The notes under the pieces: model-generated
What the model was told of the DNA's origin: nothing
What the model saw: only the letters and a program-made list of their open reading frames with translations
The model's database searches: none
Made by a program: the position numbers and the translations under genes
Shown here: positions 38,234 to 60,792 of the stretch, piece by piece
How positions within the stretch are numbered: the first letter of the stretch is position 1
Layout of the letters: each line of letters begins with the position of its first letter
Assembly (NCBI GenBank): GCA_902795215.1
Contig: CADBKG010000004.1
Coordinates: forward strand, 17,259-81,258
Direction of reading: 5' to 3'
Source: an uncultured Erysipelotrichaceae bacterium
Lineage (GTDB): Bacteria > Bacillota_I > Bacilli_A > RF39 > UBA660
Length of the DNA stretch: 64,000 nt

Positions 38234-38266
38234 AAATTAACTTATAAAAAACAATATAGTTTTCAA

Positions 38267-40470: not shown

Positions 40471-40754
40471 ATGGATAACTTAGATAGAGCGTTAAAAGGT
40501 ATTGTTATAGATGCAGGGCATGGTGGTGTAGATAGCGGGGCAGTTGGTAATGGTCTTGTTGAAAAGGACTTAACATTAGAGATAAGCAAATACATGTATG
40601 ATAGATTTAAAAGTATGGGAGTTCCTGTTTCATTAACGCGTGATTCTGATATAACTTTATCATCTGATAATAGACCAAGTGTTGTTTTAAATAAATATGG
40701 TAATTCTAGTGATATATTAGTACTTTCTAACCATATAAATGCGGGTGGAGGCGA
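40471..40754 (+). pseudogene. N-acetylmuramoyl-L-alanine amidase (Amidase_3, CwlC-like), fragment 1 of 3, interrupted by element A
   Basis: IVIDAGHGGVDSGAVGNGLVEKDLTLEI...LSNHINAGGG matches the N-terminal half of Amidase_3. After 40754 the frame reads unrelated sequence to a stop at 40791. Confidence 0.85.
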
Positions 40755-40823
40755 TGGTCAAAGTGTAACAAACATTAAGTATAACAATTAAAGCCTAAAA
40801 ATAATAAGAAATGGAGAAATGTT

Positions 40824-41174
40824 ATGAATATTAGTTACACTAAAAAAGGTGATTATTTATTACCTAATTTAATATTAAAAGAAAAAGTACAATATAATAT
40901 AGGAAAATATGGATTATTAAGACTAGAGTATATTAAGAAAGAAAAATTAGGATTATATTTTGATTTACTTGTTAATGATACTTTAAATGAATATCTTCAT
41001 GATATAGATAATATTGTTATGGAGAAAGTGCAAAGTTTAATTAAAGAACTTGCTGAAAAAGAAAATATAAATGATAAGTTAAAACAAGATAATCAAATGC
41101 TTTGGGTAAGTAAAATGAATAATATTAAAAATAGAGCAGAAGAAATAATTCTAAAGGAGTATATCTATGTGTGA
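40824..41174 (+). CDS. tnpV: TnpV-like transposon-associated protein
   Basis: YTKKGDYLLPNL...QDNQMLWVSKMNNIKNRAEEIILKE resembles TnpV of Tn4451-family elements. Confidence 0.7.
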   Translation: MNISYTKKGDYLLPNLILKEKVQYNIGKYGLLRLEYIKKEKLGLYFDLLVNDTLNEYLHDIDNIVMEKVQSLIKELAEKENINDKLKQDNQMLWVSKMNNIKNRAEEIILKEYIYV

Positions 41175-41534
41175 TACTTACCGGTATGTATTAATTATGA
41201 TAACTATCTAAAAGAATTTGTAATACCTGATGTAGTAGCCTTTTATATAGCAGATAATTTTTATAAAAAAGTACTTTCTAAAGCGCCACTATATAATCAT
41301 ATTAATTCAGCAATAGATATATTTAATGTAAGATGTGATATAGATAAACTAATACCATCTATAAAGAAGATACTAAGAATTAAATATAATTTAAGAATAG
41401 TAAAAGATAATCCGATGATATTAAAGAAATTTTATTAAAAAGAAGAACTCTATCAGATTTAAACGATAGAGTTTTTATATTAATTAAACTGATGATTCAT
41501 GTGTTATAATAATAGATAATTTTGGAGGTACTAT

Positions 41535-42473
41535 ATGACAGATGAACAAATAAAAGAAATTACTAAGAATTTAACAGAAGATCAGATTAAACAATTATTA
41601 AAAATGTTGACTGAAAAGGATTTGAATACTTTAAAAGAAAAACTAGAAAAATCAGTTAATAATAATTTTATAATTCCATTAAGGAAGGCAAATAAACAAA
41701 ATATCAAATTATTATATAAAAATAATGATATTCGTAGAGAGACAACTAATTTATTAAATCAATCATTAATATCAATTAAGAATATACATTATTTAATAAG
41801 TAAAAAATCATTAGTAGATGCAAATACTTTATTAAGGTCATGCTTTGAAAATATAGTTATGGCTATGATGATATATTTTGATGACGAAACATACAATGAA
41901 TTTAAAATACTTGGATTAAAAGATGAGGAAAGAGAATATACAAATCTTTCTAAATTAAGGAATGGCTTAAAAAAGAAATTAAAAACAATAAGTCCAGAAA
42001 TGTTTAGCGAGATGAATAATAGAACAATAGGACACTTGTTAAAAGAATTTTATGATAAACTTTGTTTATATACTCATAGCACTTTAGTTGTTAACGCGAT
42101 GATAGAAGTTGGAATAAATAATGATGAAGATTTATTTATTTCTATTAACAAAGTAAATGTATATTTTTTAGAGATATTGGTTTATGCGTGTTTAAAATAT
42201 TTAAGTAAGAATGAAGAAATGTCAATAGATATTACTTATATACTATTTGGAATGTTTTTAATGTTATCAAGAATAGATAAAGATAAATATTCTGACGAAT
42301 ATATGAAAAGATATAATGATTTATTACATCCAGATATAAATGGTGAATATTTTAAAAAGAATACTCAAGATATAATAGAAATTCAAAAAATGGCAAAAGA
42401 GGTTAACCAAGCTATAGAAGATAATCCGGTTGCAATTATTAATTTATTAACTGAGTTATTAAAAGAATTTTAG
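41535..42473 (+). CDS. Hypothetical protein
   Basis: 312-aa ORF with RBS GGAGGT; helical; no confident motif. Confidence 0.45.
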   Translation: MTDEQIKEITKNLTEDQIKQLLKMLTEKDLNTLKEKLEKSVNNNFIIPLRKANKQNIKLLYKNNDIRRETTNLLNQSLISIKNIHYLISKKSLVDANTLLRSCFENIVMAMMIYFDDETYNEFKILGLKDEEREYTNLSKLRNGLKKKLKTISPEMFSEMNNRTIGHLLKEFYDKLCLYTHSTLVVNAMIEVGINNDEDLFISINKVNVYFLEILVYACLKYLSKNEEMSIDITYILFGMFLMLSRIDKDKYSDEYMKRYNDLLHPDINGEYFKKNTQDIIEIQKMAKEVNQAIEDNPVAIINLLTELLKEF

Positions 42474-42654
42474 AAATACAATTATTGTCTAGCCAGCACT
42501 GAATTTGTACTCCCGTACAAAATTCTTTTGTGGGATTACTCCCAAACCCTATTTTAAAAATTAAAAATTTGTAAGTATTTCAATGTCAAAATTAAAAATT
42601 TGTCGAATTATATGTTATAATAATATTGATTTGAAACTTTAGGAGTGAGAGAGT

Positions 42655-43311
42655 ATGAAAGAAAAATGTGGAGTAATTTATATATTAACTAATCCATCAT
42701 TTCCAGAGTATATCAAAATTGGATATGCTGACGATGTTGAAGCAAGAGTAAAACAATTAAATATTTCTGAGGCTGTTCCTTTTTCATTTCATATTTATGC
42801 TACTTTTGATGTAACTGAGAGATTAACTGATATAAAATTACACAAGTTTATAGATACTATAAATCCAGAACTTAGAAGTAAAGAAAAAATAGGAGATAAA
42901 ATTAGAGTTAGAGAATTTTATCATATGAGCCCAGAAGAAATGTATTCTGCATTTGAAAGTATGGCTGAAATAAATGGAACAACCAATAGACTTCATTTAT
43001 GGAAAGAAACAAATGAAGAAATAGAAGATAGGAAAGAAGCATTGTTATTATCAAAAAATAGACATCATTTTAAAAATATAAATTTTCATTCAAGTTTAAC
43101 AGGAAAAGATTATTATTCTAAAACAAATGAAGATGGAACTCTAGGTATATATGAAAAAGATACAGATAATGAAGTTCCAAATAATTCAAATCCCTCAAAA
43201 CGTCAAATTTTATATTCAGCACTTGAAGATTTAGGCGGAGATGTATCTAGTGGAAATACTTTATATCAATTAGAGCACAAATTAGAGAAAATTTTAGTTA
43301 GTAGGAAGTGA
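42655..43311 (+). CDS. GIY-YIG-like T5orf172 (MUG113) domain protein
   Basis: GVIYILTNPSFPEYIKIGYADDVEARVKQLN is the typical T5orf172 N-terminus. Confidence 0.65.
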   Translation: MKEKCGVIYILTNPSFPEYIKIGYADDVEARVKQLNISEAVPFSFHIYATFDVTERLTDIKLHKFIDTINPELRSKEKIGDKIRVREFYHMSPEEMYSAFESMAEINGTTNRLHLWKETNEEIEDRKEALLLSKNRHHFKNINFHSSLTGKDYYSKTNEDGTLGIYEKDTDNEVPNNSNPSKRQILYSALEDLGGDVSSGNTLYQLEHKLEKILVSRK

Positions 43312-43315
43312 TATT

Positions 43316-44437
43316 ATGGCTAATAACGAAAGTTTGAAAAGAGCAAAAAAAGAAAAAGATGATGAATTTTATACTGAATACTCAGACATAGAAAAAGAAA
43401 TGAATGCTTATCTAGAATATAACCCAAATGTTTTTAAAAATAAAACGATACTACTTCCATGTGATGATCCAGAGTGGAGTAATTTTACTAGATATTTTGC
43501 TCAAAATTTTGAATTACTAGGACTTAAAAAACTTATAAGTACCAGCTATGCTAACGATAAAAAAAGTGCAGTATTTGTTCAATTATCACTATTTGAGCAA
43601 GAAAGTCCTAAATTTGATAAGAATAAGACTAATTCACATGGGAAAATATTTACATTAGATAGAGATACAAATAAATCGGGTAGAATTGATATAAATGATT
43701 TAGAATGGGACTATCTAAAAGGAGATGGAGATTTTAGATCTGACGAAGTAAAAAAATTAAGAGATGAAGCTGATATTATTATAACTAATCCCCCTTTTTC
43801 ATTATTTAGAGAATTTCTTTCGTGGCTAATAGAATCTGGTAAGCAGTTTATCATTATTGGAAATGAAAATGATGCAACTACCAAGGAAACATTTCCATTA
43901 GTAAGAGACGGTGTTATGTGGTTAGGAAAAAATGCTGGTGATATGTCATTTAAAGTACCAAAAGATTCAGAACCACGAGAGACAAGATTTTGGATAGACG
44001 AAAAAGGGCAAAAATGGCGCAGTATGGGTAATATATGTTGGTATACTAATATTGACTTAAAAAGACGTCATACTGTACTTAATTTGATGACTATGCACGA
44101 TAACTTAAGATATAACAAACCTTTAATAAAAAAATTAGAAAAAGATTATGGACTAAAAACTTATCCAAAATTTGATAATTATAATGCTTTAGAAGTTCCT
44201 AGATATGATGCTATTCCATCTGATTACGATGGTGTAATGGGTGTACCAATAACATTTCTTAAACTACATAATCCCAGACAATTTAGAATAATAGGTCATA
44301 CTCATTCTGGAGATACAACACCAGAAGTGGAAAAGTTGAGAACTATTCCATCTAAACGTCACAGAGGCCATATTAATGGGAAACAGATTTATGATAGAAT
44401 TTTAATTCAGAAAGTGGATGGTGAAAATGAAAACTAG
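43316..44437 (+). CDS. EcoRI-methylase-like N6-adenine DNA methyltransferase
   Basis: [16 protein letters not shown]-terminus and catalytic [14 protein letters not shown] (NPPF) motif. Confidence 0.75.
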
Positions 44438-45611
44438 ATTAAGGACAGATTTAACTATTAGACAGATATGTGAAGGATTTCAATATAGTGAATCTGAAGA
44501 AAAAGGATTATTTGGTTGGGCAGGTAAATTAACTATTCAACCAGAATATCAAAGAAATTATATTTACGCTAATGGAAAAGATGATGTTGCTGTTATTGAT
44601 TCTTTATTAAAGGGTTATCCTATAGGATTAATTTATTTTGTTGAAACAGAAAAAGATAAATATGAAATTCTTGATGGACAACAAAGAATAACTAGTATAG
44701 GTAGATATGTAACTAATAAATTTGCATGGATTGATGAAAACGATATTCCATATAAATTTGAGTCACTTCCAAAAGATAAACAAGATAAAATATATAACAC
44801 CGAATTAACCATTTATATTTGCAGTGGTGAAGAGTCTGAAATAAAAGAATGGTTTAAAACAATTAATATTGCTGGTAAGCCATTAAATAACCAAGAATTG
44901 TTGAATTCTATTTATAGTGGACCATTTATTACTAAAGCAAAAGAGGTATTTAGTAATTCACAAAATTCTAATTTACATAAGTGGTTGAGTTATATGAAGG
45001 TTGAAGTAAAAAGACAAGGATTATTAGAAGTCGCTTTATCATGGGTTTCAAAAGATTGGGAAAAAGATGGTAATCTTGAAAAATATATGGCAGATCATAG
45101 ACATGATGATAATATTAATGAATTAACTTCATATTTTAATGATGTTATTAACTGGGTTTCAACTATATTTATTGATGTAAAAGATGAAATGCAATATATT
45201 AATTGGGGAAAAATGTACGAAAAGTATCATAAAAATCCTTATAATTCTAATGATGTTTCAAGAAAATTAAATGAATTATATAGTGATTACTTTGTAAATG
45301 ATAAAAAAGGTTGTTATGAGTATATATTAAATGGTTGTAAACAAGAAGATACAAAATTACTTAATATTAGACTTTTTGATGAGCCAACAAAAAAGACAGT
45401 ATATGAAAGTCAAACACAAAATGCTAAAATTAAGAACATTTCTAATTGCCCAATGTGTGTAATCGAAAACTTATCTAATAAAACAAAAATATGGGATTAT
45501 AAAGATATGGATGCTGATCATGTAACTGCATGGAGCAAAGGGGGATCTACTGACATTAGTAATTGTCAAATGCTATGTAGAACACATAATCATATTAAAG
45601 GAAATAGATAA
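44418..45611 (+). CDS. DUF262 (ParB-like nuclease) plus HNH endonuclease fusion, GmrSD-type type IV restriction-like
   Basis: [11 protein letters not shown] and [10 protein letters not shown] (DGQQR) motifs; C-terminal [35 protein letters not shown]. Confidence 0.75.
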
Positions 45612-45617
45612 TATTAA

Positions 45618-45667
45618 AGCGCTAGTACAGGCTTAAATATGTTTAAGTTTTTGTATTGCGCTTTTTT
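45618..45667 (+). repeat. Second copy of the terminator-like hairpin element (see 36546-36593)
   Basis: AGCGCTAGTACAGGCTT...AAGTTTTTGTATTGCGC plus TTTTTT. Confidence 0.6.
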
Positions 45668-45684
45668 AGTAGTAGGAGGTAGTG

Positions 45685-46875
45685 ATGTTAAGAATATATA
45701 TAGGACCTAATGGTTATGGAAAGACATATGCAATTAATAGTAAAATAGAAGAATTAAAAAAAGAGGATAAAAATAGAAAAGATATAATAATACTAAATTC
45801 TGAAATAGTTTTTGCAGATGAGATGAAGGATAGTGTTAATAATTCATTTGTTATGGAATATTTAATAGAAGAATTATTAGAAAATGATGATATTAATACT
45901 GCAAAAAATAATTATGAAAAATTAATAGACAAAAATGTAGAAGAGAATAAAAAAATGTATAATGATATTATGAATGAAGTGTTATCTCTTAATAATCAAC
46001 AGAGAAAAAAAGATGTTATAGATACTACATCTAGTAAAGAACATAAAAAACTTATCAAAATAAATTCAGATGATTTAAAGAATTCTATGGGTAGCGGTCA
46101 AAAATTGCAATTTTTATTAAAATTAATTGAAAAAAGCAATAAAAAATATATATTTTTAGACGAACCAGAGAATCATACACATCCTTCATTATTACACATT
46201 ACAGCTGGATTGATTAATAAGTTGAGTATAGATAAAGATGTGTGTATTGCAACTCATTCTCCAGAATTACTAAGTTTGTTAAATATTGATTTTAATGAAT
46301 TATATATTTTTAATGATCCAAATTATGGGAACCCTAAGAAAATAAATTTTAATGATGCGGTATCTATTTCAAAATCTATACATTTAGATAATTTAAATAA
46401 TAAATCAAAAACTTATTATAACGCATTAAGCTTTAAAAAAAATATAATAGAGTTACATAAAAAAGAATTTTTTGAGGCTATTTTTTCAAAAAAAGTATAT
46501 ATGATTGAAGGTATTAATGACTTATTATTTTTAAAATCATTATTAGTAAAAAATCTTGAGCAATATAATCAATATAGTATTTTTCAATGTTATGGAAAAC
46601 CTCATTATTTGCCTTTTATTAATGTTTTTGAACAATTAGGGATTGAGGTTGTGCCTTTATTTGATATTGACGATAAAAATGATAGCAATAATGTTTTGAT
46701 TAATGAAGAAATAAAAAAATGTAAGAAATATTTAGAATTTGACGATAATTTAGAAAATGAATTGAATTATTTGGGGAAAAAGACTGATACTACAGCTTTT
46801 ATTGAGTTTTTGGATAACTTTAATAATTATAAAAAATATAGTTCTATATTTGATGGAAGTGATGAAAATGTTTAA
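45685..46875 (+). CDS. Compact OLD-family protein (ABC-type ATPase plus Toprim)
   Basis: Walker A GPNGYGKT, signature-like MGSGQK, Walker B YIFLDEPENHTHP, ATHS; then Toprim-like VYMIEGINDLLF and PLFDIDDKND. Confidence 0.6.
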   Translation: MLRIYIGPNGYGKTYAINSKIEELKKEDKNRKDIIILNSEIVFADEMKDSVNNSFVMEYLIEELLENDDINTAKNNYEKLIDKNVEENKKMYNDIMNEVLSLNNQQRKKDVIDTTSSKEHKKLIKINSDDLKNSMGSGQKLQFLLKLIEKSNKKYIFLDEPENHTHPSLLHITAGLINKLSIDKDVCIATHSPELLSLLNIDFNELYIFNDPNYGNPKKINFNDAVSISKSIHLDNLNNKSKTYYNALSFKKNIIELHKKEFFEAIFSKKVYMIEGINDLLFLKSLLVKNLEQYNQYSIFQCYGKPHYLPFINVFEQLGIEVVPLFDIDDKNDSNNVLINEEIKKCKKYLEFDDNLENELNYLGKKTDTTAFIEFLDNFNNYKKYSSIFDGSDENV

Positions 46876-49180
46876 TATATTAAATTTAGATCCATTAGAA
46901 TTTGAAAAGTTTTGTATGGATTTTATGGAGAAAAAATTAAATACAAAATTTAAAAGATTTGGTCCGGGAAAAGATGATGGAATTGATTTAATAAGTTTAG
47001 ATGGAAAAATTATATGTCAATGCAAACGTTATAAGGACTCATTAAATTTAAAAACAGTTTGTCAAAATGAATATAATAAAATAAAAAACACAGAATTTGA
47101 AAAATACTATTTACTTACAACTGCAGAACTGGGTAAAAAAATAGTAGAAAATATATATGAAATTTTTCACGAATATATGGATGATTACTCTTATATAATA
47201 GGGAAAACAGATATTGATGACTTTTTATCTGACACTAATAATATAGATGTTTTGAAAAAAAATCATAAATTATGGCTATCTTCATCTATTGTTTTAGATT
47301 TGTATTTAAATAGATATTCTGATGCAATAAGTAAGGTAATTATAAATGATTTTGAAAATGAAACAAAATTTTTTGTTGAAACCAAAGCTTATTATAATGC
47401 AGTGGATATTATTAATTCAAATGGAATAATCTTATTTGTCGGAGATCCTGGTATTGGAAAAACAATAACATCAAAAATGTTAATAAGATATCTTTTAGCA
47501 AATAATAAAGATTATAAATTGACAACAGTATCTAATAACGACTTATCAAAATTAATAGAGTCTGTACATCAAAATGATGATCCTGAAATAATATTTTTAG
47601 ATGATTTTTTAGGTCAAACTTCATTATCTTTAGATGATAAGTTGATTAATGATTTAAAAAATTTATTGAAGTTAACTACAATTTTTAATAATAAGAAGGT
47701 TATATTAAATAGTAGAATTACTATTTTAAACAAGGCAAAACATGAAAAAGAAGAATTTGAAAAATTATTAGATGAAATAGGTATAAAAGAGTGCCTAATT
47801 GATGTAAATGATTTAAGTCAATTAGATAGGGCGAGAATATTGTATAACTTAATGTATCATAATGGTGTTACAAAAGAATCATTTAATACTATAAAAAAAG
47901 ATAACAATTATAATTTAATAATTAATCATAAATCTTTTAATACACGAATCATTGAAATGTGTTGCAAAAGATCTAATAGGGTAGCTTCTGAGAATTTTTT
48001 TAATTATATTATTGAATCATTAAATAATCCAAAAGATATTTGGAAAAGTGAGTTTGAGAGAATAGAAACGTGTGATGTAGTCCTAATGTATCAATTGTAT
48101 ACATTAGGAAATAATTATATACCAGTTGATTGCCTTCATAAATCTGTTACAAATTATCTTTGTAATTCTAATTCTGAAGTTGAAAAATATAGCTTTGAAG
48201 ATTCAATAAATAGATTGAGTAAGTCATTAATAGGAATTGCAATATTAGGCAAGAAAAAATATATAAGTGTTCTAAATCCATCTATTAATGACTATATTCA
48301 GAATTACCTTTTAGATAATTTGGCTGAATTAAAGAAAATTTATGATAATGCATTATATATAGAGCAAATAGATAAAATAGTGAATATTTTACCATCTATT
48401 TTAGAAGATAAAATTGAGGGCTTTGAAAAATTAATTGCATATAATCAATATAATTCGTTCATGAGTAATCAATATTTAGACAAAAAGAAGAAAATTAATT
48501 TTATATTAAAAAATAAATATTTTGATAAAAATTTAATTAATTATATTAGTGATTTATTTAATATAGATATTGGTGGAAATTATTTAATTAAAATGGCAAT
48601 GGACGAGAAAATACGAGAATATTATAATTTAGAAGAAAAACTATCTAATATGGATTTAGTTTCAAAGAGGTTTTGTGATGCAGACTATGATTATATAGAG
48701 GAATTATTTGATTATTATTCAACTCAAAAAATTCCATTAACTATTATTGAAGAAAGTTTAGAAGAAATATATGTAAATGCTTTAGAACAAAAATTGACAA
48801 TTATTGGTGAAGAATATGCAAAAGAATTGATAAATGAAGCATCTGCAGATGAAAAATTTGTTGGTGAAATAGAAGAAATTGAGGTAAATAGTGATTTTGT
48901 ATATGAATTAAGAACACAAGTAGAGGATGAAATTAAAAGTCAAAGTTTTGAATTGATTAACTTAATTAAAGAAAAAGGTTATGAGATGGAAAATATTAAA
49001 ATAGATGTAGACATAATAATTGATAATATTTGTATTGAGATGCTTCTTGATGACGATTTGACGTCATTTTTAAAGGACTTAGCTGTAGAGAATATGGAAT
49101 ATGATTATTCAGATATGGGAGCACGTGATACAATTACAATTGATGATATATTTAATCAAGAATATGACATTATTAATTAA
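46862..49180 (+). CDS. Mrr-like nuclease fused to a STAND/NACHT-like P-loop NTPase with a helical C-terminal region
   Basis: N-terminal GPGKDDGIDL...IICQCKRYK (Mrr_cat-like); Walker A GDPGIGKTITS; Walker B IIFLDDFLGQ. The start at 46862 overlaps the upstream stop. Confidence 0.6.
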   Translation: MKMFNILNLDPLEFEKFCMDFMEKKLNTKFKRFGPGKDDGIDLISLDGKIICQCKRYKDSLNLKTVCQNEYNKIKNTEFEKYYLLTTAELGKKIVENIYEIFHEYMDDYSYIIGKTDIDDFLSDTNNIDVLKKNHKLWLSSSIVLDLYLNRYSDAISKVIINDFENETKFFVETKAYYNAVDIINSNGIILFVGDPGIGKTITSKMLIRYLLANNKDYKLTTVSNNDLSKLIESVHQNDDPEIIFLDDFLGQTSLSLDDKLINDLKNLLKLTTIFNNKKVILNSRITILNKAKHEKEEFEKLLDEIGIKECLIDVNDLSQLDRARILYNLMYHNGVTKESFNTIKKDNNYNLIINHKSFNTRIIEMCCKRSNRVASENFFNYIIESLNNPKDIWKSEFERIETCDVVLMYQLYTLGNNYIPVDCLHKSVTNYLCNSNSEVEKYSFEDSINRLSKSLIGIAILGKKKYISVLNPSINDYIQNYLLDNLAELKKIYDNALYIEQIDKIVNILPSILEDKIEGFEKLIAYNQYNSFMSNQYLDKKKKINFILKNKYFDKNLINYISDLFNIDIGGNYLIKMAMDEKIREYYNLEEKLSNMDLVSKRFCDADYDYIEELFDYYSTQKIPLTIIEESLEEIYVNALEQKLTIIGEEYAKELINEASADEKFVGEIEEIEVNSDFVYELRTQVEDEIKSQSFELINLIKEKGYEMENIKIDVDIIIDNICIEMLLDDDLTSFLKDLAVENMEYDYSDMGARDTITIDDIFNQEYDIIN

Positions 49181-49336
49181 TGAAAAAATAATATATGGGA
49201 GTACAGTTTGTATTCCTTTTTTCTTTTTTGTACAATATCTTTTTATTTTTATTTGATGTAAGATGGAAACACCTAGGAGAAGTAGTATGTAAAAGTGCAC
49301 TTTTATAAAGATATATTTTATGTATGATTCTATAGA

Positions 49337-49780: not shown

Positions 49781-49826
49781 AAATATTATGGGAAAAATTA
49801 TCATAGAATTTTTTAAGAGGTGAAAA

Positions 49827-49922
49827 ATGTTTAATATTAAAGAAACCTTTAAAAAAGATGATAATTCTACTATTAATGATTTGATAATTGGATATATAAA
49901 ATGTGTTTTAATAAAATCGTAG
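49827..49922 (+). CDS. Small ORF upstream of recombinase A (shortened homologue of 58605-58784)
   Basis: RBS AAGAGGTG; 31 aa; FKKDDNSTINDLIIGYIK aligns with FKDASISLNEIITEVLK of the element B ORF. Confidence 0.35.
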   Translation: MFNIKETFKKDDNSTINDLIIGYIKCVLIKS

Positions 49923-51584: not shown

Positions 51585-51586
51585 TT

Positions 51587-51948
51587 GAAGTTAGTTTATT
51601 TCTAACTTCGTACATATAGAGGCGAAAATACAAAGAAATTATGTGTAAAACTATTGAATATAAATGTTATAACAAACTTGTGACCAAATTGGGTAAAAGT
51701 TACTAATATGAATGATTAATTAACTTCGGCCCAAGTTGGCCAAAGTTAGTGCAATATCTTCTAACTTCCCACAAACTTGGATGGAAGTGGGATAATTAAA
51801 CTTACGACCAAGTTAGTCGAAGATTATATAGTAACTTCTGACCAAATTGAACAGAAGTTGCAATGTTAAATTTGAAGGAATAATAATTATTGTTTTGATT
51901 CTATTAATATTTAAAAAAAATAACTTTGTCGCAAGTGGCGACGAAGTT
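51587..51948. repeat. Array of seven imperfect palindromic units built on AACTT/AAGTT
   Basis: Units at 51587-51609, 51675-51701, 51722-51747, 51763-51791, 51798-51822, 51833-51859 and 51922-51948. Outer arms AACTT...AAGTT are conserved; inner arms vary but remain largely complementary. Confidence 0.7.
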
Positions 51949-52094
51949 AAAAAAAATTTAAATAATATATTTTAATTTTTAGTACATTATAATAAAGGCG
52001 TAATAATTCTTAAAATTAAAAAGCTATTACGGTTAATCGTAATAACTTTACAAAAGTGTAAAAATGATATATAATGTAATCAGAGGTGATTTAT

Positions 52095-53300: not shown

Positions 53301-53317
53301 ATTGGGAAAATTATATG

Positions 53318-53357
53318 CTGCAGAGAATTCTGCAGAGCTCTGCAGTAATCACTGCAG
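53318..53357. repeat. Four phased CTGCAG(A) motifs in the intergenic region
   Basis: CTGCAG at 53318, 53330, 53340 and 53352 (spacing 12, 10, 12 nt); includes the perfect 16-nt palindrome CTGCAGAGCTCTGCAG. Confidence 0.7.
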
Positions 53358-53379
53358 ACTTAAACAGTAGGTGTGGTTT

Positions 53380-54405
53380 ATGGATAAAAAAGTAAGTAGA
53401 AACAATCATTATTTATCGCAAATGTATTTAGATGCATGGAAAAATAATGATAATAAAGTTTTAGTATATGAATTATTAGTTCCAAATGAAAAATGTCCCA
53501 TGTGGAAATCTAAATCAATAAAAAGCGTTGGAAGTTATGATAGTATGTTTGTTAGATTAAAAAACGGAATTGAAGTAGATGATATTGAAGAGTGGTTTAG
53601 AGATAGATATGAAACTCCAGCAAAAAAATCATTAGAACATGCTATAAATGATGGAAAAATAACTGTTGATGAATGGCATTGTTTAATTGATTTTGTTGCT
53701 TGTCATATTGTTCGTTCTCCTGCTTTTTTAATTAAAACTTTGGATTATGGTAAAAAATGTGAACCAATTTTTCAAGAAGTATTGAGTGAAATATCAAATA
53801 TGAAAGAAGAAGATTTTATTAAAACAAAAGAACGTTCTAATTATTCTAATAATAAAGATGAGTTATTTCCGTTTAAAATGACGAAAATCGGAGAAGAAGG
53901 CAATAATGTAATTTTTAAGGCAGAAACAATTATAGGAAAACAATTTTATTTATGGAACATGAAGAATCTATTAGAAAACACTTCTAAAATATTGCATAAG
54001 CATAAATGGGGAATTATTACAGTAGATGATAAAGTGGTATTACCTACAAGTGATGATCCTGTAATTTGTTTAAACTATAATAATCAAAATGAGTATGATT
54101 TTGACGGAGGCTGGGGTAAGAAAAACTGTAATATATTATTTCCAATATCACCAAAGAAAATATTATATACTCAGGTAGGATTAAAAGTAAAACCAAGAAT
54201 GAACATAGACTACGAAACAAGTTTATTATTTAAGAAAATGATAGTCGAGCATTCTCATAGAAAAGTTATTTCAACCTATGCTGATAAAGATGCTGTTATA
54301 ATTAAACCAAGATATGTAAATGAAAGTGAATATCAAAGAGAAAAGAAAATGTGGGAAGATTTTCAAAAAGACTATTTAGAAAAAGAAATAGATTATATAA
54401 GATAA
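53380..54405 (+). CDS. DUF4238-like protein
   Basis: N-terminal NNHYLSQMYLDAW resembles the DUF4238 signature (NHY.P..YL..F); the family call is tentative. Confidence 0.45.
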   Translation: MDKKVSRNNHYLSQMYLDAWKNNDNKVLVYELLVPNEKCPMWKSKSIKSVGSYDSMFVRLKNGIEVDDIEEWFRDRYETPAKKSLEHAINDGKITVDEWHCLIDFVACHIVRSPAFLIKTLDYGKKCEPIFQEVLSEISNMKEEDFIKTKERSNYSNNKDELFPFKMTKIGEEGNNVIFKAETIIGKQFYLWNMKNLLENTSKILHKHKWGIITVDDKVVLPTSDDPVICLNYNNQNEYDFDGGWGKKNCNILFPISPKKILYTQVGLKVKPRMNIDYETSLLFKKMIVEHSHRKVISTYADKDAVIIKPRYVNESEYQREKKMWEDFQKDYLEKEIDYIR

Positions 54406-54500
54406 AATTGTTAATTACTAAAAGTCGAAACCGTGACAATTTTTCACACTTTCAAGACTAAAAATAAAATAGTTACATTTTGACCTATGCGAGGAGGCGA

Positions 54501-54833
54501 AGGCGCAGAAGTAATATATGCTTTAAGAAACAACGACACACTTGCAAGTAAGATTCTTAATAATCTTGTAAACGAAGGCCAAATAGGAAGAAAGTATTAT
54601 CAAAAAAGATTACCAAGCAATTCTAGTAAAGATTATTATTATATGTTAAGGGAAACACCAAACACAGAAAGTTTAATTATTGAATATGGTTTTATAGATA
54701 ATGCAAATGATGCAAAAAAACTTACAAACAACTGGCAAAACTATGCTGAAGCTGTAATTAAAGCAGTTATGGATTATAAAGGATTAAAATATGTTCCAAT
54801 TATAACTGCAGATAGTTATATTGTTAAATCAGG
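54501..54833 (+). pseudogene. Amidase_3 C-terminal half plus the start of LysM-1, fragment 2 of 3
   Basis: EGAEVIYALRNND...LIIEYGFIDNANDAKKL...YIVKSG continues fragment 1 in frame. The annotated ORF 54487-54867 begins and ends in element sequence. Confidence 0.85.
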
Positions 54834-54895
54834 AGATACGATTTTTATGGGGAATAATGAGTATTAAATTAAATTTTATATATAAAATATTGCTT

Positions 54896-54920
54896 AAGTT
54901 GAGAAAAACTCAACTTTTTT
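54896..54920 (+). terminator. Terminator just inside the left end of element B
   Basis: AAGTTGAG-aaaaa-CTCAACTT hairpin plus a T-run, followed by the extended -10 TGGTATAAT (54921-54929). Confidence 0.65.
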
Positions 54921-54968
54921 TGGTATAATTTAATTATCAAGAACTTTTTTGAAAGGAGTACACTTTTT

Positions 54969-55373
54969 ATGAAAGTAAAATTAACTGAAGTAATTGATGC
55001 ATTAGATTTTACAAATGATGAAATTGAATATTATTATAATCCAGATAATGGAGAAATTTTTATGTCAAATATTGGAGATTATGAAGACATAAATGAAGAT
55101 GAATTAGACGAATTATTTGAAAAGTCTATTATGTTACCTACTAGATATGATATTAACGAATATGAAATGATGGAAGATTTTGCAGAAACTATTGAAGATG
55201 CTAGACTTCAAAATCAACTATATATTTCTTTAAATGGTAGTGGTGCATTTAGAAGATTTAAAGATACTTGCATTAATTTTAATATTATTGATGATTGGTA
55301 TAAATTTAGAGATGAAAAATATAAAGAACTTGCTATAAATTGGTGTAAGGATAATAATATTGAATTTGAATAG
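54969..55373 (+). CDS. UPF0158-like small acidic protein
   Basis: 134 aa; the pattern MKVKLTEVIDALDF...YYYNPDNGEIF...GSGAFRRFKD is typical of UPF0158. Confidence 0.5.
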   Translation: MKVKLTEVIDALDFTNDEIEYYYNPDNGEIFMSNIGDYEDINEDELDELFEKSIMLPTRYDINEYEMMEDFAETIEDARLQNQLYISLNGSGAFRRFKDTCINFNIIDDWYKFRDEKYKELAINWCKDNNIEFE

Positions 55374-55383
55374 GAGATGAATC

Positions 55384-56940
55384 ATGAAGAAGTTTTTAAG
55401 AAATTATGATTTTGAAGATTATTTTGAATCACATATTCTATCCCGTGGGAAAAATTACTATAAAGAAAATAGAATATTAGATATTTGGTGTCAAGATGAT
55501 TCAATAATTGCTTATATTGATGGTTCTGAAATATATAGAATAGAATTAAGAGCAGATAATAAAGAACTAAAAAAATTTTATTGTTCATGCCCATACTCAG
55601 AAGATGGTGAATACATGTGTAAACACATTGCTGCTGTCCTTTATTATTTAGAAGAAAATGATATTCCAGAATTAGAAACTTCAAATAAAAAAGAAATAAA
55701 ACAAGATAAGCATAAATCTGAACTTTCTAAAATATATGATGAAATGAATTATGAGTTAAGAAAAATAAGTGATAGAAATGGTTTTGTTAATTATTATAAT
55801 GGAAGATACTTTGTAGACTTAATTTCTAATGTATCTGATTACATAGATGATTTTATAGATAATGAAGAATATAATAATGCTTTTGAACTAATTAAATTTA
55901 CATATAAATTTATAAAGGATACTTTTATGGATGGATCTAATGGTGAATTTCAAGATTCATTATATTTAATTAACGAAAGTGCAAGTAACCTTTTATATAA
56001 TGATGAATATTTTTATATTTTCTTAGATTATACTGAAGATATAACATCAAATAATACTCTAGATGATTTTTCTGATTCACCATTACATGCATTTATCATT
56101 TATGTTCATGATAAAGAATCTGCTAAAAAAGTAGTTAAAATACTAGATGAAATTGAATTAAGTACTTATGGAATATTCGTTAGCCAAACTTTAGATAAAA
56201 TATCATTAACTTATGATTTTATTGATAGAGATGAAGCTATAAAAATGTGTTATAAAAGTATTGAACATTATGGAGTAAAAGAATTATTAATTAAGTATTT
56301 AAAAAATGATAACAAAATCGATGAAGTTATCCTTTTATTAAAAGATGATATTAAAAATCATGTAAGAAAAGATATGTCTTATGACAAATTATTAGATATT
56401 TATGATGAGTATAATAAACTAGATGAAAAGAAAAAATTATTACCTGAGGTTATTATAGAAACAAATAGTTTTGCAAGATACAAAGAACTAAAAGATATGT
56501 ATAGTGATTCTGAATGGGAGGCTATAAAAGAAAAAATAATATCTAAAATAAAACCTAACAATAGAGATATTTTAGAAGATATTTATATGGAAGAAAATGA
56601 AATTGATAAATTATTCCAATTATTAAAGAAAAATCCTAGTATGTATAGATTAGCAAAATATCAAGATGTACTAAAAGATAAATATAGTAAGGAATTATTA
56701 AATTTTTATAAACCACAGATACTTGAAGAATCTAAAAGAGTATCAGATAGAAAATGGTATCAAGAATTATGTCATTATATTAGAAAAATGAAAGAACTCT
56801 ATAATTCAGATGATTTTATCTTTGATATGCTTAAAGAAATGTATCCTAATTATAGAAGTAAAAGAGCATTTAAAGAAGAAATAATGAAAGTTTTAAGTTC
56901 TAAAAATAAACAAAGATTTTATGAATTGATAAATAACTAG
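55384..56940 (+). CDS. SWIM zinc-finger protein
   Basis: CSCPYSEDGEYMCKHIAAVLYYL is a CxC...CxH SWIM motif; long helical C-terminal region. Confidence 0.7.
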   Translation: MKKFLRNYDFEDYFESHILSRGKNYYKENRILDIWCQDDSIIAYIDGSEIYRIELRADNKELKKFYCSCPYSEDGEYMCKHIAAVLYYLEENDIPELETSNKKEIKQDKHKSELSKIYDEMNYELRKISDRNGFVNYYNGRYFVDLISNVSDYIDDFIDNEEYNNAFELIKFTYKFIKDTFMDGSNGEFQDSLYLINESASNLLYNDEYFYIFLDYTEDITSNNTLDDFSDSPLHAFIIYVHDKESAKKVVKILDEIELSTYGIFVSQTLDKISLTYDFIDRDEAIKMCYKSIEHYGVKELLIKYLKNDNKIDEVILLLKDDIKNHVRKDMSYDKLLDIYDEYNKLDEKKKLLPEVIIETNSFARYKELKDMYSDSEWEAIKEKIISKIKPNNRDILEDIYMEENEIDKLFQLLKKNPSMYRLAKYQDVLKDKYSKELLNFYKPQILEESKRVSDRKWYQELCHYIRKMKELYNSDDFIFDMLKEMYPNYRSKRAFKEEIMKVLSSKNKQRFYELINN

Positions 56941-56955
56941 AAAGATGGTGATAAG

Positions 56956-57901
56956 ATGAAAAACAACATGATTATATATGTATCAAAAGATGGTAATGTA
57001 AAAGTTGATGTTAATATACAAAATGAGGATATTTACATGAGTCAAGATTTAATGGCTAATCTTTATGATACAACTAAAAATAACATTTCAATGCACTTAA
57101 AAAACATATTTGATGAAGGTGAATTGGAAAAAAATTCAGTTGTTAAGAAATTCTTAACAACTGCTAGTGATGGCAAGAAATATAATGTTTTACATTATAA
57201 TTTAGATGCAATTATTGCTGTTGGATATAGAATTAATTCCAAAAAAGCAACTGAATTTAGAATATGGGCGACCAAAGTTTTAAAAGAATATATGGTTAAA
57301 GGATTTGCTTTAAATGATGAAAGATTAAAGAATAATGGTGAAAGTCCATATTTTGAAGAATTACTTGCAAGAATTCGTGATATTAGATCATCTGAAAAAA
57401 TATTTTGGAGAAAAGTATTAGATATTTATGCAACTTCAATTGATTATGATGACTGTGCAGAATAAAATGCACTATGCTACACACGGACATACTGCTGCTG
57501 AAATTATATTTACTAGAGTAGATTCTGAAAAAGATTATTTAGGTCTTACTAATTTTAAAGGTAATTATCCAACAAAGAGTGAAACTGAAATTGCTAAGAA
57601 TTATTTAACAGAAGAAGAACTTAATATATTAAATAGAATGGTATCAGCGTATTTAGATGTAGCAGAAATTAATGCTTTAGATAGACATCCAATGACTATG
57701 CAAGATTGGGTTAATGAATTAGATTCATTCTTAAAAATGACGAGAAAAGATATTTTAAATGGTTCAGGAACCATTTCACATAAAGAGGCATTAGAAAAAG
57801 CACATAAAGAATATGATAAATACATGCAAAAACATTTAACAACTGCTGAGCAAGATTATTTAGAAATGTTAAATAAAGAGATTGAAGAAATTGATAAATA
57901 A
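56956..57901 (+). pseudogene. RhuM-family protein, disrupted (two overlapping frames)
   Basis: 56956-57465 carries the RhuM N-terminus (HLKNIFDEGELEKNSVVKKF...YNLDAIIAVGYRINSKKATEFRIWATKVLKEY). The continuation (TVQNKMHYATHGHTAAE...) lies in another frame from about 57450. Confidence 0.65.
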
Positions 57902-57975
57902 TTTAGTATGTTTTTTGTTAATAAATTCACTTAAAAATAATTACTATGAAAAAAAGATTTGAAAGGAGTAAAAAA

Positions 57976-58224
57976 ATGAAAAAATGGAAAACAGTAAAAA
58001 AAATTACTGTAGTTGTTTTAATACTTTTTATAATAAGATTGATTATTGATGCTATTTTATGCATGAATATGACTTATCCTCATCCTATGTTAGGTATAGA
58101 TGCAAATAAGTGGACAGATCAGTTCGGTGTAGATTTAGCATTTATTCTAGTTATTTGGGGTATACCTTTAATAATTGATATTATTTTTTTAGTAATATCA
58201 TGTGTTAAAACAAAGGAAAAGTAA
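57976..58224 (+). CDS. Small membrane protein
   Basis: RBS AAAGGAG then ATG at 57976; two hydrophobic segments. Confidence 0.45.
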   Translation: MKKWKTVKKITVVVLILFIIRLIIDAILCMNMTYPHPMLGIDANKWTDQFGVDLAFILVIWGIPLIIDIIFLVISCVKTKEK

Positions 58225-58319
58225 AAAGACTATTTATAAATTTAAAATCATCCTTTATATAAACCTACAAAGTAGGTTGAATTTCGTAAGTACGAAATAA
58301 GAATGGTGTATACACAAGT

Positions 58320-58339
58320 CCTTATTTTATAAGGAAAAA
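58320..58339 (+). repeat. Third copy of the CCTTATTTTATAAGGAAAAA core
   Basis: 20/20 identical to 38158-38177 and 16/16 to 29297-29312; the flanks are also loosely similar to the 38.15 kb copy. Confidence 0.6.
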
Positions 58340-58521
58340 CGCGTGTTGTTACACGATCTTCTTATCCTGCTGTTTCATATTTTAATAAGATATGAATCAT
58401 TTTAGGAAGATAGATAAAACTTGCCATAGTAAATGACTTGACTCTTATATTTAACGAGAGGTATCATCCAATTAATGAGGAGATGATGTTTATGAATTTG
58501 GAGGAGGATTATGATATTAAG

Positions 58522-58562
58522 TAATATTACCTAGTATGAAGAAATCATACCAGGTAATATTA
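58522..58562. repeat. 18-bp inverted repeat upstream of the element B recombination module
   Basis: TAATATTACCTAGTATGA-agaaa-TCATACCAGGTAATATTA (one mismatch). Confidence 0.65.
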
Positions 58563-58604
58563 CAAAAATTAAAACCATAGGATTAATTGGAGGTACGGGA
58601 CTCT

Positions 58605-58784
58605 ATGGTTAAATACAAAGTTAATTTAATATTTAAAGATGCATCTATTTCTTTAAATGAAATAATAACTGAAGTATTAAAAATAGAATTAGCGAATATG
58701 TTGGACATGACTTGCAATTATAAAGATTACGAGCTACCATGTAATCATACTCATTATTTCCAAGTAGAAGGGAGTAGTAATTAA
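58605..58784 (+). CDS. Small protein translationally coupled to recombinase B
   Basis: RBS GGAGGT then ATG at 58605; TAATG overlap with the recombinase start; homologous short ORF upstream of recombinase A. Confidence 0.45.
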   Translation: MVKYKVNLIFKDASISLNEIITEVLKIELANMLDMTCNYKDYELPCNHTHYFQVEGSSN

Positions 58785-60349
58785 TGGTAGGGAATAGTAG
58801 TTTTAAAGTAGGAATTTATATAAGATTATCAAGAGATGATGGAAATATAGAATCTGATAGTATTGTGAGTCAAAGAAGTTTATTAAATCAATATGTTAAA
58901 GAAAACAATTATATGTTAGTAGATGAATATGTAGATGATGGATTTTCTGGAACTAATTTTGATAGACCAGCATTCAAAAAGATGATGAAAGATATTGAAG
59001 TAGGTAAAATCAACATGATTATTACTAAAGATATGTCTAGATTAGGTAGAGATTATATAGGTACTGGTGAATTAATAGAAAAGTTTTTTCCAAATAATAA
59101 TATAAGATATATTGCTATTAATGATGGTATAGATACTTTTATAGATAATACAAATAATGATATTGCACCTTTTAAAGCCATAATGAATGATATGTATGCT
59201 AAAGATATATCTAAAAAAATAAAAAGTAGTCTTCATTCAAGAATGAAAGATGGTTTATATGTATCAGGAAGATGTCCTTTTGGCTATATGAAAGATCCAG
59301 AAAATAAAAATCATTTAATCATCAATGAAGAACAAGCAGAAGTTGTGAAATTAATATTTGATTTAGCACTTAAAGGTAATACATATCACTATATTGCACA
59401 ATACCTAACCAATAAGAAAATAAAAACACCTGCCTCTTATTACAACTATGTATGGAACACAAAATGTATTAATACTAATTGTATATCACAAGAATATGGT
59501 GTATGGGTAGATACTACAATTAAAGCAATTTTAACTAATAGAATATATACAGGTGATGCAGTACAAGGTAAGACAAAAAAGATTAATTATAAACTAAAAA
59601 AGACAGTTAAAAATAATCCAAATGATTACATAATAGTAGAAAATACACATGAAGCAATAATTGACAAGAGTATATTTAATTATGTACAAACTTTACTACC
59701 TAAAAATGTTAAAAGACCAGAAAAGAAAAGATTTTATTTATTAGATGGTTTACTATATTGTGGAGATTGCAAACATCGTATAACAATTAGGTATCAAAAT
59801 AAAACAGGAAGAAGTTATACGACTTGTGATTATTATAGAACATATTCAAAATATCATGTCTGTACAACTCACACAAATAATTATGAAGTATTAGAAAGTA
59901 TTATTTTAGATAATATAAAAGATGTATGTAAAAAGTATTTAGATAAAAATAAAATAAAAGAATCTATTAATAATATAGAGTTTGAAGATAATACTTTTAG
60001 GATTAAAAAACAAATTGAAAGCCTAGATTTAACTAATAATAGATTAACTGAAAGTCTAGATAAAACATATATGGATAGATTAAAAGGAATTATTGATGAA
60101 GAACAATATATTAGAGTAAGTGAAAGTATAAAAACAGAAATAAATAATAATAAAAATAATATTGATAATCTTAAAAATGAACAAATTGAAGAAAATAAAG
60201 TAGATAACAAACAAATAGAAAAATATATTAATGAATTTTTATCACTAGATAAGGTGGCTAGGGAATTAATAATTAATTTAGTTGAAAAAATCTATATCTA
60301 TCAAGATAAGACGATAGATATTATATTTACATTTAAAAATGTTACATAA
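58784..60349 (+). CDS. Large serine recombinase (TnpX/SpoIVCA family) of element B
   Basis: VGIYIRLSRDDGN...YVDDGFSGTNFDRPAF...DMSRLGRDY, recombinase domain, zinc ribbon CGDCKH...CDYY, coiled-coil C-terminus. Confidence 0.9.
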   Translation: MVGNSSFKVGIYIRLSRDDGNIESDSIVSQRSLLNQYVKENNYMLVDEYVDDGFSGTNFDRPAFKKMMKDIEVGKINMIITKDMSRLGRDYIGTGELIEKFFPNNNIRYIAINDGIDTFIDNTNNDIAPFKAIMNDMYAKDISKKIKSSLHSRMKDGLYVSGRCPFGYMKDPENKNHLIINEEQAEVVKLIFDLALKGNTYHYIAQYLTNKKIKTPASYYNYVWNTKCINTNCISQEYGVWVDTTIKAILTNRIYTGDAVQGKTKKINYKLKKTVKNNPNDYIIVENTHEAIIDKSIFNYVQTLLPKNVKRPEKKRFYLLDGLLYCGDCKHRITIRYQNKTGRSYTTCDYYRTYSKYHVCTTHTNNYEVLESIILDNIKDVCKKYLDKNKIKESINNIEFEDNTFRIKKQIESLDLTNNRLTESLDKTYMDRLKGIIDEEQYIRVSESIKTEINNNKNNIDNLKNEQIEENKVDNKQIEKYINEFLSLDKVARELIINLVEKIYIYQDKTIDIIFTFKNVT

Positions 60350-60362
60350 AAATTGTATCAGG

Positions 60363-60792
60363 TGATACTCTTTGGACTATTGCAAGAAATAACGGCCTTA
60401 CGGTTGATGAATTAAAGAAATTAAATAACTTAACATCTAATACTCTACAAATAGGGCAAGTGCTAAAATTAAAAGAAAACTCTTCAAATAATAGTGGAGT
60501 AAATAATTATTACACAGTAAAAAGCGGGGATAGTTTATGGAAAATAGCAAATACATTTGGTACAACAGTAAATAAACTAAAAGAAATAAACAACTTAAAA
60601 ACAGATGTATTACAAATAGGGCAGAAATTACTTTTACCTACTTCTAATGAAGAAAAAGTATATACTGTAAAATCTGGAGATACTTTATATGGAATAGCAC
60701 TAAAGAATAATACGACTGTTGATAAGTTAAAAGAAATCAACAATTTATCAACAAATATATTAAGTATTGGACAAAAACTTCTTTTACCTTAA
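60363..60792 (+). pseudogene. Remainder of LysM-1 plus LysM-2 and LysM-3, fragment 3 of 3 of the amidase gene
   Basis: GDTLWTIARNNGLTVDELKKLNNLTSNTLQIGQVLKL, then YTVKSGDSLWKIA... and YTVKSGDTLYGIA... . In frame with fragment 2; the track ORF 60460-60792 is its tail. Confidence 0.85.

Follow-up and report, generated by a model that had tools for sequence, protein, structure and literature searches.

The 64-kb window analyzed here, that is, the whole stretch of DNA taken from contig CADBKG010000004.1, contains one ancestral Amidase_3-LysM gene that is split in frame by two independent elements (A and B), each encoding its own large serine recombinase (LSR). The amidase pieces, the motifs upstream of them and both elements with their genes lie on the + strand. 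Amidase fragment 1 (40471..40754) encodes residues 1-94 plus 2 nt; its open reading frame (ORF; 40471-40791) encodes MDNLDRALKGIVIDAGHGG...NHINAGGG, enters element A, and continues there with unrelated codons (...DGQSVTNIKYNN) up to a stop at 40791. Fragment 2 (54501..54833) covers residues 95-205, and the ORF as it stands (54487-54867) encodes (MRGG)EGAEVIYALRNND...YIVKSGD followed by TIFMGNNEY and a stop, so that its end reads ...VKSGDTIFMGNNEY. The frame of fragment 3 (60363..60792; residues 206-348 and the stop codon) picks up at GDTLWTIARNNG, supplies the remainder of the first LysM domain as well as two further LysM domains, and is followed by a terminator-like hairpin that was read by eye. 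Joining the three pieces (40471-40754, 54501-54833 and 60363-60792) gives 1,047 nt, corresponding to 348 codons and a stop, and Pfam analysis of the joined product places Amidase_3 at residues 11-184, ahead of the three LysM domains. Since the catalytic domain begins at residue 11, there is no room for a signal peptide.

Both junctions preserve the reading frame by means of short common cores. At junction A the core GGAGGCGA is present at 40747-54 and 54493-500, and at junction B the core ATCAGG(a/t)GATAC is present at 54828-39 and 60357-68. Precise excision performed in silico restores an intact 348-amino acid (aa) amidase ORF, colinear with uninterrupted homologues, and the predicted junction sequences are CATATAAATGCGGGTGGAGGCGAAGGCGCAGAAGTAATA for attB-A, TAGTTACATTTTGACCTATGCGAGGAGGCGATGGTCAAAGTGTAACAAAC for attP-A, TATATTGTTAAATCAGGTGATACTCTTTGGACTATT for attB-B and TTACATAAAAATTGTATCAGGAGATACGATTTTTATGGGG for attP-B. 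The attL site of element A (40747..40769) consists of the core (40747-54) and the attP right arm GGTCAAAGTGTAAC (40756-69), and its attR site (54472..54500) of the attP left arm GTTACATTTTGACC (54472-85) and the core (54493-500). The rebuilt attP-A is an imperfect palindrome, GTTACAtTTTGACC-N16-GGTCAAAgTGTAAC, with GG at its center. Similarly, attL of element B (54828..54849) reads ATCAGG followed by aGATACGATTTTTATG, an arm conserved in six species, attR (60345..60368) reads CATAAAAATTGTATC-AGG followed by tGATAC, and the rebuilt attP-B is again an imperfect palindrome with GG at the center, CATAAAAATtGTATC-AGGn-GATACgATTTTTATG. The attP arms of both elements are conserved in relatives.

Element A (40755..54500) has a length of 13.7 kb with every gene on the + strand, and element B (54834..60362) one of 5.5 kb. 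LSR-A (49932..51584; 550 aa; Resolvase, Recombinase as well as Zn_ribbon_recom domains) and LSR-B (58784..60349; 521 aa, intact, its end lying 13 bp short of the crossover) share 38% identity; both possess all three LSR domains as well as intact YIRLS (the catalytic motif), SRLGR and DDGFxGTNFDRP motifs. A first-pass annotation, made from the letters of the window alone, had proposed the three in-frame pieces, the Amidase_3 and triple LysM architecture without signal peptide, frame-preserving joints at short shared cores, and one large serine recombinase of the same orientation in each intervening segment. All of these proposals hold, down to the coordinates of the pieces and the 348 codons of the joined ORF, and both recombinase genes are intact.

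When the joined amidase was searched against 5.8 billion protein clusters, thousands of full-length Amidase_3-LysM proteins were recovered. The homologue P0004 also has 348 aa and shows 91% identity at 100% query coverage; its alignment has no gap at either junction, as the first-pass annotation had expected of a colinear relative, and its DNA (L081) is colinear with the joined window sequence. Cluster look-ups yielded the uninterrupted 348-aa alleles P0132 and P0134 with 98.6-98.9% aa identity. The locus of P0134 (L091) is 96-99% identical to the window at the nucleotide level, flanks included, and therefore empty sites exist in the same species, which besides intact alleles also carries other elements at site A. 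In strains with 92-94% aa identity, the empty syntenic loci L085-L090 possess an intact amidase in the same neighborhood, so that empty attB sites in relatives are known from L081 and L085-L091. In the intact neighborhood, the amidase gene is followed by that of the 152-aa membrane protein and, in opposite orientation, by Hydrolase_2 and NUDIX/GT2.

The occupied allele was also found outside of the window. L083 contains all of A plus B in one contig at 100% identity, and L082 together with L084 does so in two contigs of one sample, which amounts to two or three independent samples with this structure. The 126-aa ORF of the middle fragment, which includes both junction ends, recurs without a mismatch in contigs of five more samples. 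The strain is present in samples ERZ28613745, ERZ27280503, ERZ1029115, ERZ28613061, ERZ919302 and ERZ27280387. When the window is compared to other assemblies of this strain (L082, L083, L084 and L097) over more than 20 kb, indels of 27-60 bp are the only differences, and there is no single-nucleotide polymorphism (SNP); the indels are located at 41177, 49529, 53302, 57451 and 54889-54948, all of them inside the elements.

In order to see how often the amidase gene is interrupted, we surveyed 80 loci of species-representative genomes which encode a relative of the window amidase. The gene is plainly intact in 59 of them and split in at least 11 species representatives (about 14%). Five loci (L063, L064, L066, L071 and L078) are split at the same catalytic-motif codons as in the window, another five (L004, L045, L047, L057 and L060) have a B-type element in a LysM repeat, and in L077 the amidase begins at residue 196 in the middle of a contig. 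In four loci (L009, L013, L050 and L072), the amidase gene is complete and an additional N- or C-terminal piece of it is attached to an A-type arm; such pieces resemble scars left by previous activity of an element or by a Campbell-type integration. In L009, a 360-bp direct repeat (313-672 and 9916-10275; 97.5% identical) spans the promoter and the first 95 codons, and the locus is devoid of an LSR. For these four loci, a spare amidase carried by the element was considered as well, but a Campbell-type scar accounts for the L009 repeat without LSR better than a designed surrogate would. Among the species with scar loci, the PDC-S01 (AAA_14) gene shows 96% identity. Several different attP arms occur at site A, and hence several LSR lineages use this site.

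A scan of metagenomes with LSR-A led to 46 loci. Among the relatives with 57-98% identity to LSR-A (L123-L155), about 30 have readable flanks, and all of these are inserted between amidase residues ~94 and 95. The codons targeted encode the catalytic motif NAGGG/EGAEV (the slash marking the insertion point) in every member examined. Members of the LSR-A family share a backbone which consists of attL, tnpV some 70 bp further on, variable cargo, an HTH_36 gene, a small ORF, the LSR gene, more cargo and attR. Copies of LSR-A that are at least 96% identical adjoin amidases that are only 44-63% identical to that of the window; therefore, the elements cross species and the insertions are young. Old, vertically inherited insertions were rejected by this co-divergence test, the elements being far more alike than their hosts. 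Given how recent the insertions are, nothing about selection can be read from the intact frames of the split genes.

Element B targets DNA encoding the LysM motif VKxGD/TL in whichever LysM repeat is available: the arms of B-type elements are near-identical (…GGaGATAcgATTTTTATGGGGAATAATGAGTA and ACATAAAAATTGTATCaGG…), yet they are found in different LysM repeats (L060, L004, L045, L047 and L123). The smallest B-type elements, of about 3 kb, consist of a leader, a small ORF and an LSR gene. One mini-element of this kind (3.2 kb; L100:5905-9574 from IMG/VR, also L099 and L120-L122) splits a Peptidase_M23-LysM gene at the same LysM motif; its LSR is 86% identical to LSR-B and it lies a few kb from a gene for a GH25-CW_7-LysM endolysin. 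Therefore, the B family recognizes LysM-motif DNA and not this particular gene, and its target is at least partly chosen by sequence motif. With regard to a prophage origin of element B, LSRs of 86% identity do occur on IMG/VR contigs, but there they sit in the 3.2-kb mini-element near host-like genes and are not the integrase of the phage itself.

Double occupancy by A- and B-type elements recurs in three other loci (L123, L131 and L134). The host amidase in L123 is about 61-63% identical to that of the window and all three of its pieces are intact and in frame; in L167, LSR and amidase are both decayed. The first-pass annotation had known of no described case of two independent elements stacked 333 bp apart in one late lytic gene. 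The stacked arrangement is not unique, given the three further loci, and the interruption of single genes by multiple elements is known in heterocystous cyanobacteria (PMC4874684, PMC11249958). A different type of element, with three tandem LSR genes that are 30-40% identical to LSR-A and LSR-B, was encountered in L156-L164 and is reminiscent of gin.

The region upstream of the amidase contains a terminator-like hairpin (40384..40414), predicted to insulate the amidase promoter from upstream transcription, and a sigma-K-type promoter-like motif (40424..40451). The latter, AC-N17-CATATAAAT, is a degenerate copy of the clade consensus AC-N16/17-CATAyAmTA. In most orthologues the sequence is xCAC-N16/17-CATA(c/t)A(a/c)TA, placed directly before the ribosome-binding site (TAGGTGAT). 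The pattern AC-N16/17-CATAnnnTA was detected upstream of 45 of 66 amidase orthologues and of 12 of the 1,063 other ORFs in those loci (Fisher p = 6e-53, a value inflated by the relatedness of the sequences), and 10 of these 12 ORFs are orthologues of the neighboring 141-aa Hydrolase_2 (CwlJ-type) gene, which carries the motif in a minority of species. If 39 distinct sequences are anchored on CATAnAnT, T is found at position 7 in 39/39, A at position 8 in 35/39, and C 17 nt upstream in 32/39, in a genome of 26% G+C. The motif fits the sigma-K consensus of Bacillus and Clostridioides (AC, 16-17 nt, CATA---TA) better than that of sigma-A or sigma-E, and no sigma-70-type site was found upstream of the window amidase. 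The window copy has an extra A in the -10 region, which is shared by intact alleles of the same clade, and deviates from the consensus at two positions that are nearly invariant elsewhere; in the cwlJ-like gene, the C of CATA is often missing from the -10 region. The loose resemblance to a sigma-K promoter that the first-pass annotation had noted in the window has thus become much stronger across species, while the window's own copy is degenerate. Given this promoter type, the amidase appears to be used only late.

Element A begins with tnpV (PF14198; 40824..41174), the first gene past attL, which is located 33 bp after the stop of fragment 1; examination of the interval revealed no terminator. 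Its product matches PF14198 at E = 1e-36. An unknown 312-aa gene stands between tnpV and the T5orf172 gene (PDC-S57), with which the defense cargo (42655..49180) starts. This cargo further comprises a type II methyltransferase (EcoRI-type) with a GmrSD-HNH restriction enzyme, an OLD/AriA-like ATPase, and PDC-S73 Mrr-STAND, so that the defense-type character ascribed earlier to element A is borne out by domain and PADLOC annotation. The HTH_36 gene (49337..49780) belongs to the backbone and is present in all LSR-A-type elements. Between it and LSR-A are small ORFs (49788..49922), namely an upstream ORF (uORF; 49788-49823) and a conserved 31-aa ORF (orf31; 49827-49922), with a conserved CATAGAAT at 49802-09. 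The orf31 product (MFNIKETFKKDDNSTINDLIIGYIKCVLIKS) is conserved before every LSR-A relative and resembles the N-terminal half of that of orf59 in element B. In L127 and L129-L135 (88-98% identity), codons 8-10 of the annotated LSR-A ORF are stops located in a hypervariable hairpin loop, and therefore the true start of LSR-A or its mechanism of expression is ambiguous.

Between LSR-A and the AAA_14 gene there is a hairpin repeat array (51675..51950) of 6-7 units of 27 nt with the layout AACTT...AAGTT. The unit is AACTTnnnnCCAAnTTGGnnnnAAGTT; its stem ends are conserved and the inner stems co-vary. For the excised circle, the array might act as iteron set, oriT or single-strand origin. More cargo, PDC-S01 (AAA_14/DUF4143) and DUF4238 (52086..54405), fills the space between LSR-A and attR. 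The genes recognized in elements A and B by Pfam and PADLOC are confined to defense, regulation and recombination, and neither phage, conjugation, relaxase nor Mob genes were revealed in any ORF of either element. A prophage origin of element A was rejected, as there are no phage genes and IMG/VR contains no relative of LSR-A.

Element B carries genes for UPF0158, a SWIM-domain protein and RhuM, followed by a leader region, orf59 and LSR-B. A 32-bp deletion at 57451, not present in L082 and L083, puts the window copy of rhuM out of frame. An intrinsic-terminator-like hairpin (54896..54922; read by eye), just within the element, would stop read-through from fragment 2. The leader of the LSR-B operon (58230..58604) is conserved and structured over about 350 nt and contains TTGACT-N18-TATCAT (58438-67), a 13-codon uORF (58483-58524) and hairpins, and it matches no Rfam family. 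It was also encountered in L045, L047 and L057. The uORF is MMFMNLEEDYDIK and its indels in relatives are multiples of 3, a long hairpin begins at the uORF stop, and an 8-bp stem AACCATAG/CTATGGTT encloses the start codon of orf59. The small ORF orf59 (58605..58784; 59 aa) is translationally coupled to LSR-B by a TAATG overlap. From its sequence, the leader looks like a sigma-A-like promoter combined with leader-peptide attenuation, and not like a sporulation switch.

Downstream of the amidase and outside of both elements, a holin-like membrane protein (60880..61338, + strand; 152 aa) with 3-4 transmembrane segments and a KE-rich C-terminal tail is encoded. In many species its gene directly follows the amidase gene; past a terminator, it is provided with a TGnTATAAT-type promoter of its own. 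The CwlJ/SleB-type Hydrolase_2 gene (61361..61786, - strand; 141 aa) lies 569 bp downstream of the amidase, where a cwlJ-like gene had been noted at about 600 bp, and a tRNA-Trp (CCA) gene (61861-61934) is located just past it. Immediately upstream of the amidase a second defense-type island (29486-40355) contains genes for Mrr, a methyltransferase of the Dam type, DUF6996/6997/7226 and DUF6339 along with several unknown ORFs; its content varies between close relatives (a VWA protein in L085). A SAM riboswitch (27965-28067) precedes an FGase-family gene.

Relatives of the amidase come from metagenome-assembled genomes (MAGs) labeled Bacilli/Tenericutes/CAG:302/CAG:1000, including Clostridium sp. 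CAG:302 and CAG:1000. As all relatives belong to such MAGs, a Clostridium host was dismissed. CAG-302 and CAG-1000 name families of RF39 (PMC7676259), and the host lineage is probably RF39. Members of RF39 are uncultured, and spore formation has been predicted for them from gene content, with an unusual gene set (PMC10868615). The window contains peptidoglycan synthesis genes, parAB, tilS-ftsH and two defense islands, and apart from the cwlJ-like gene no core sporulation gene is present in its 64 kb. The cwlJ-like gene had been taken earlier as a sign of a sporulating host; the lineage-level prediction supports this view. A search with a C-terminal sequence of Spo0A produced no match in 2.26 Mb of DNA, which is uninformative as this DNA consists of local neighborhoods. 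Sporulation of the host organism is plausible.

The anatomy of the split gene, its in-frame junctions, the empty alleles, the recurrence of insertions, the recent horizontal spread of the elements and the promoter motif of the target gene are directly established. We favor an explanation by plain reversible insertion of two LSR element families into a safe harbor, to which we give roughly even chances of being correct. According to this reading, two unrelated elements, each moved by its own LSR, would have inserted site-specifically into one chromosomal amidase gene, where two extremely conserved motif-coding sites in a late-expressed, probably non-essential lytic gene may offer a tolerated safe harbor. 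Conserved sites together with a late use of the amidase would explain the repeated, often double, insertion. The amidase would be off in the germ line of the carrier, and the gene could be rebuilt, as each LSR should be able to restore its own junction exactly. We infer that the host tolerates the insertion, that the LSRs have kept their activity and that excision is free of developmental control. LSR-encoding integrative and mobilizable elements (IMEs) usually disrupt dispensable genes, and TnpX excises without a directionality factor (PMC5704250). No link of excision to sporulation is readable in the sequence.

Several points weigh against this explanation. The target amidase has a conserved promoter motif of the mother-cell type (sigma-K-type), and all LSR elements studied in mother-cell genes are excised during sporulation (PMC5595907, PMC4191935). 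The postulated Xis-like gene tnpV is always the first past attL, co-oriented with the amidase promoter and without an intervening terminator. Also, a CATA located 10-12 nt before the ribosome-binding site of orf31 is kept in all subgroups despite differing overlapping codons. Many reduced genomes have retained the amidase, an argument against its being dispensable, and the double-insertion allele is present in at least six samples.

The main rival reading is a programmed rearrangement of the skin/SPbeta/gin type. The amidase would then be a late, sigma-K-dependent enzyme of mother-cell lysis, and element A, and perhaps element B, would be excised in the terminally differentiated mother cell so as to rebuild the gene, whereas the forespore keeps both. 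We regard this as a serious possibility, although we lean against it. For element A, a variant can be envisaged in which the amidase promoter reads through fragment 1 into tnpV, whose product is perhaps a directionality factor that times excision. Consistent with such a scheme are the enrichment of the sigma-K-type motif before the amidase, with most of the other occurrences belonging to the cwlJ-like neighbor, the leaderless amidase, as in CwlC, and the predicted spore formation of RF39 (PMC10868615), of which CAG-302 and CAG-1000 are families. The short, terminator-free distance from fragment 1 to tnpV, a layout common to all family members, the postulated Xis-like role of TnpV (PMC3158075) and the conserved CATA before orf31-LSR-A fit as well. 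Split genes that keep intact frames in other species, including the second triple-split gene L123, might be quoted in its favor, but the insertions are recent and their frames say nothing on selection.

Other evidence is at odds with programmed excision. The joined protein and the form from which only element A has been excised are both absent, according to an exact look-up in 15 billion proteins. The sequence of the LSR-B operon suggests transcription by sigma-A combined with attenuation, attL-B is followed by a terminator-like hairpin (read by eye), and B-type elements also target an M23-LysM gene. No sigma-K-type motif (AC-N16/17-CATAnnnTA) stands before any gene of element A or B. The CATA before orf31 can also be explained by the overlapping uORF or by start-codon pairing. 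A sigma-E-like AAATATT-N14-CATAGAAT before orf31 was not counted, as it is not kept as a -35/-10 pair in other subgroups and overlaps the uORF. The promoter of the window amidase deviates at two near-invariant positions, and sporulation of the host is only predicted, with no other sporulation gene in the 64 kb. The account in its full form, that an RF39 bacterium rebuilds a late amidase by two programmed excisions, that of A through promoter capture of tnpV, and that the gene serves as a clade-wide docking platform for defense islands at no cost to spore release, seems to us less likely than not. If developmental excision were true, the locus would represent the first double rearrangement known from a single sporulation gene of Firmicutes, and promoter capture would provide a simple logic for the timing of excision.

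Alternatively, amidase, holin-like protein and cwlJ-like gene might constitute a domesticated lysis cassette of the phage type, with a promoter for another alternative sigma factor, in which case the elements would occupy a rarely needed lysis gene. The amidase is leaderless like phage endolysins, the holin-like ORF (60880-61338) with its transmembrane segments and charged tail is conserved beside it, and the -10 regions of the cwlJ-like gene, often without the C of CATA, resemble TATAAT. Yet there are no phage genes nearby, the amidase is chromosomal and syntenic in dozens of species, the -35 'AC', the spacing of 16-17 nt and the invariant CATA fit sigma-K and not sigma-A, and a separate TGnTATAAT-type promoter, preceded by a terminator, serves the holin-like gene, all of which makes this alternative improbable. 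An assembly or chimera artifact has a practically negligible chance of accounting for the three-piece structure, for although it is unusual that assemblies differ by indels of 27-60 bp and by no SNPs, contigs of at least six samples and assemblers, independent of one another, show identical junctions, and analogous junctions with conserved arms occur in many species.

Reversible insertion into a safe harbor thus remains our preferred explanation. In any case, the locus provides a concrete case of candidate gene-intervening elements outside of Bacillus and Clostridium, in an uncultured lineage (probably RF39) with predicted sporulation, and the conserved sigma-K-type promoter on two lytic-enzyme genes constitutes independent sequence evidence of a surviving mother-cell regulon. 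One small gene is a hot spot for two recombinase families clade-wide, and the elements ferry anti-phage defense between gut species. Also, two sets of natural attB/attP pairs with many variants become available for serine integrases, one pair targeting a repeated protein-motif sequence.

When compared to known systems, the arrangement is reminiscent of two elements of Bacillus subtilis, skin (in sigK, with SpoIVCA) and SPbeta (in spsM, with SprA/SprB), and of skinCd of Clostridioides difficile, where likewise an LSR element splits a gene with a mother-cell-type promoter, the frame is restored exactly at a short core, and attP shows dyad symmetry. However, those elements are (defective) prophages for which sporulation-specific excision and directionality factors are experimentally established, whereas here there are no phage genes, the target is a peptidoglycan amidase, two elements reside in one gene, and both the timing of excision and a directionality factor are hypothetical. 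The gin element in gerE of Bacillus cereus ATCC10987 (GirC/GirX; PMC5595907) also is of non-phage nature, combines LSR with a small accessory factor, and is near-identical between strains, indicating recent transfer. It differs by its size of 28.6 kb, by three LSR genes as compared to one LSR per element here, and by proven sporulation-specific excision; for the candidate accessory ORFs tnpV, orf31 and orf59 no similarity to GirX was detected.

Among the TnpX-TnpV IMEs of clostridia (Tn4451/Tn4453 and Tn6104-6106), TnpX is the best solved-structure match of both LSR catalytic domains (PDB 2mhc; E = 2e-28 and 3e-25), and element A resembles these IMEs in having a homologue of tnpV, in its accessory cargo and in the short direct repeats that flank it. 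In contrast to these IMEs, no Mob/relaxase gene was found in either element, DUF4368 of the TndX-like multi-targeting LSRs gave no hit in either element, the target specificity is strict and not loose, and tnpV of element A is located at the opposite end from the LSR. The interruption elements in nif and hup genes of heterocystous cyanobacteria (XisA, XisC and XisF) also reside in genes of a terminally differentiated cell, sometimes with several elements per gene and each with its own recombinase (PMC4874684, PMC11249958), but they belong to another phylum and cell type, employ mostly tyrosine recombinases, and their excision is experimentally established.

For the amidase itself, the first-pass label 'CwlC-like' has to be reduced to an analogy. 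CwlC, the mother-cell lytic amidase of B. subtilis, likewise lacks a signal peptide, has an N-terminal Amidase_3 domain that starts some 10 residues or less from the start codon, and is preceded by a promoter motif of the sigma-K type, but the C-terminal wall-binding module of the window amidase consists of three (up to five) LysM domains in place of SPOR repeats. No NCBIfam equivalog applies to the window amidase (the CwlD model scores 85 bits at a cutoff of 221), and solved amidases are only distant relatives of the joined protein. LSR IMEs in dispensable genes, such as rumA of streptococci, likewise reside inside conserved coding sequence, and distant LSRs have been reported to converge on one attB (Durrant et al., bioRxiv 10.1101/2021.11.05.467528). 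The present case differs from both in that the gene of a sporulation-type lytic enzyme is co-occupied by two LSR families. In summary, the elements are of a known kind, LSR integrative or gene-intervening elements, and the novelty lies in the target gene, in the host lineage and in the population picture of recurrent double occupancy.

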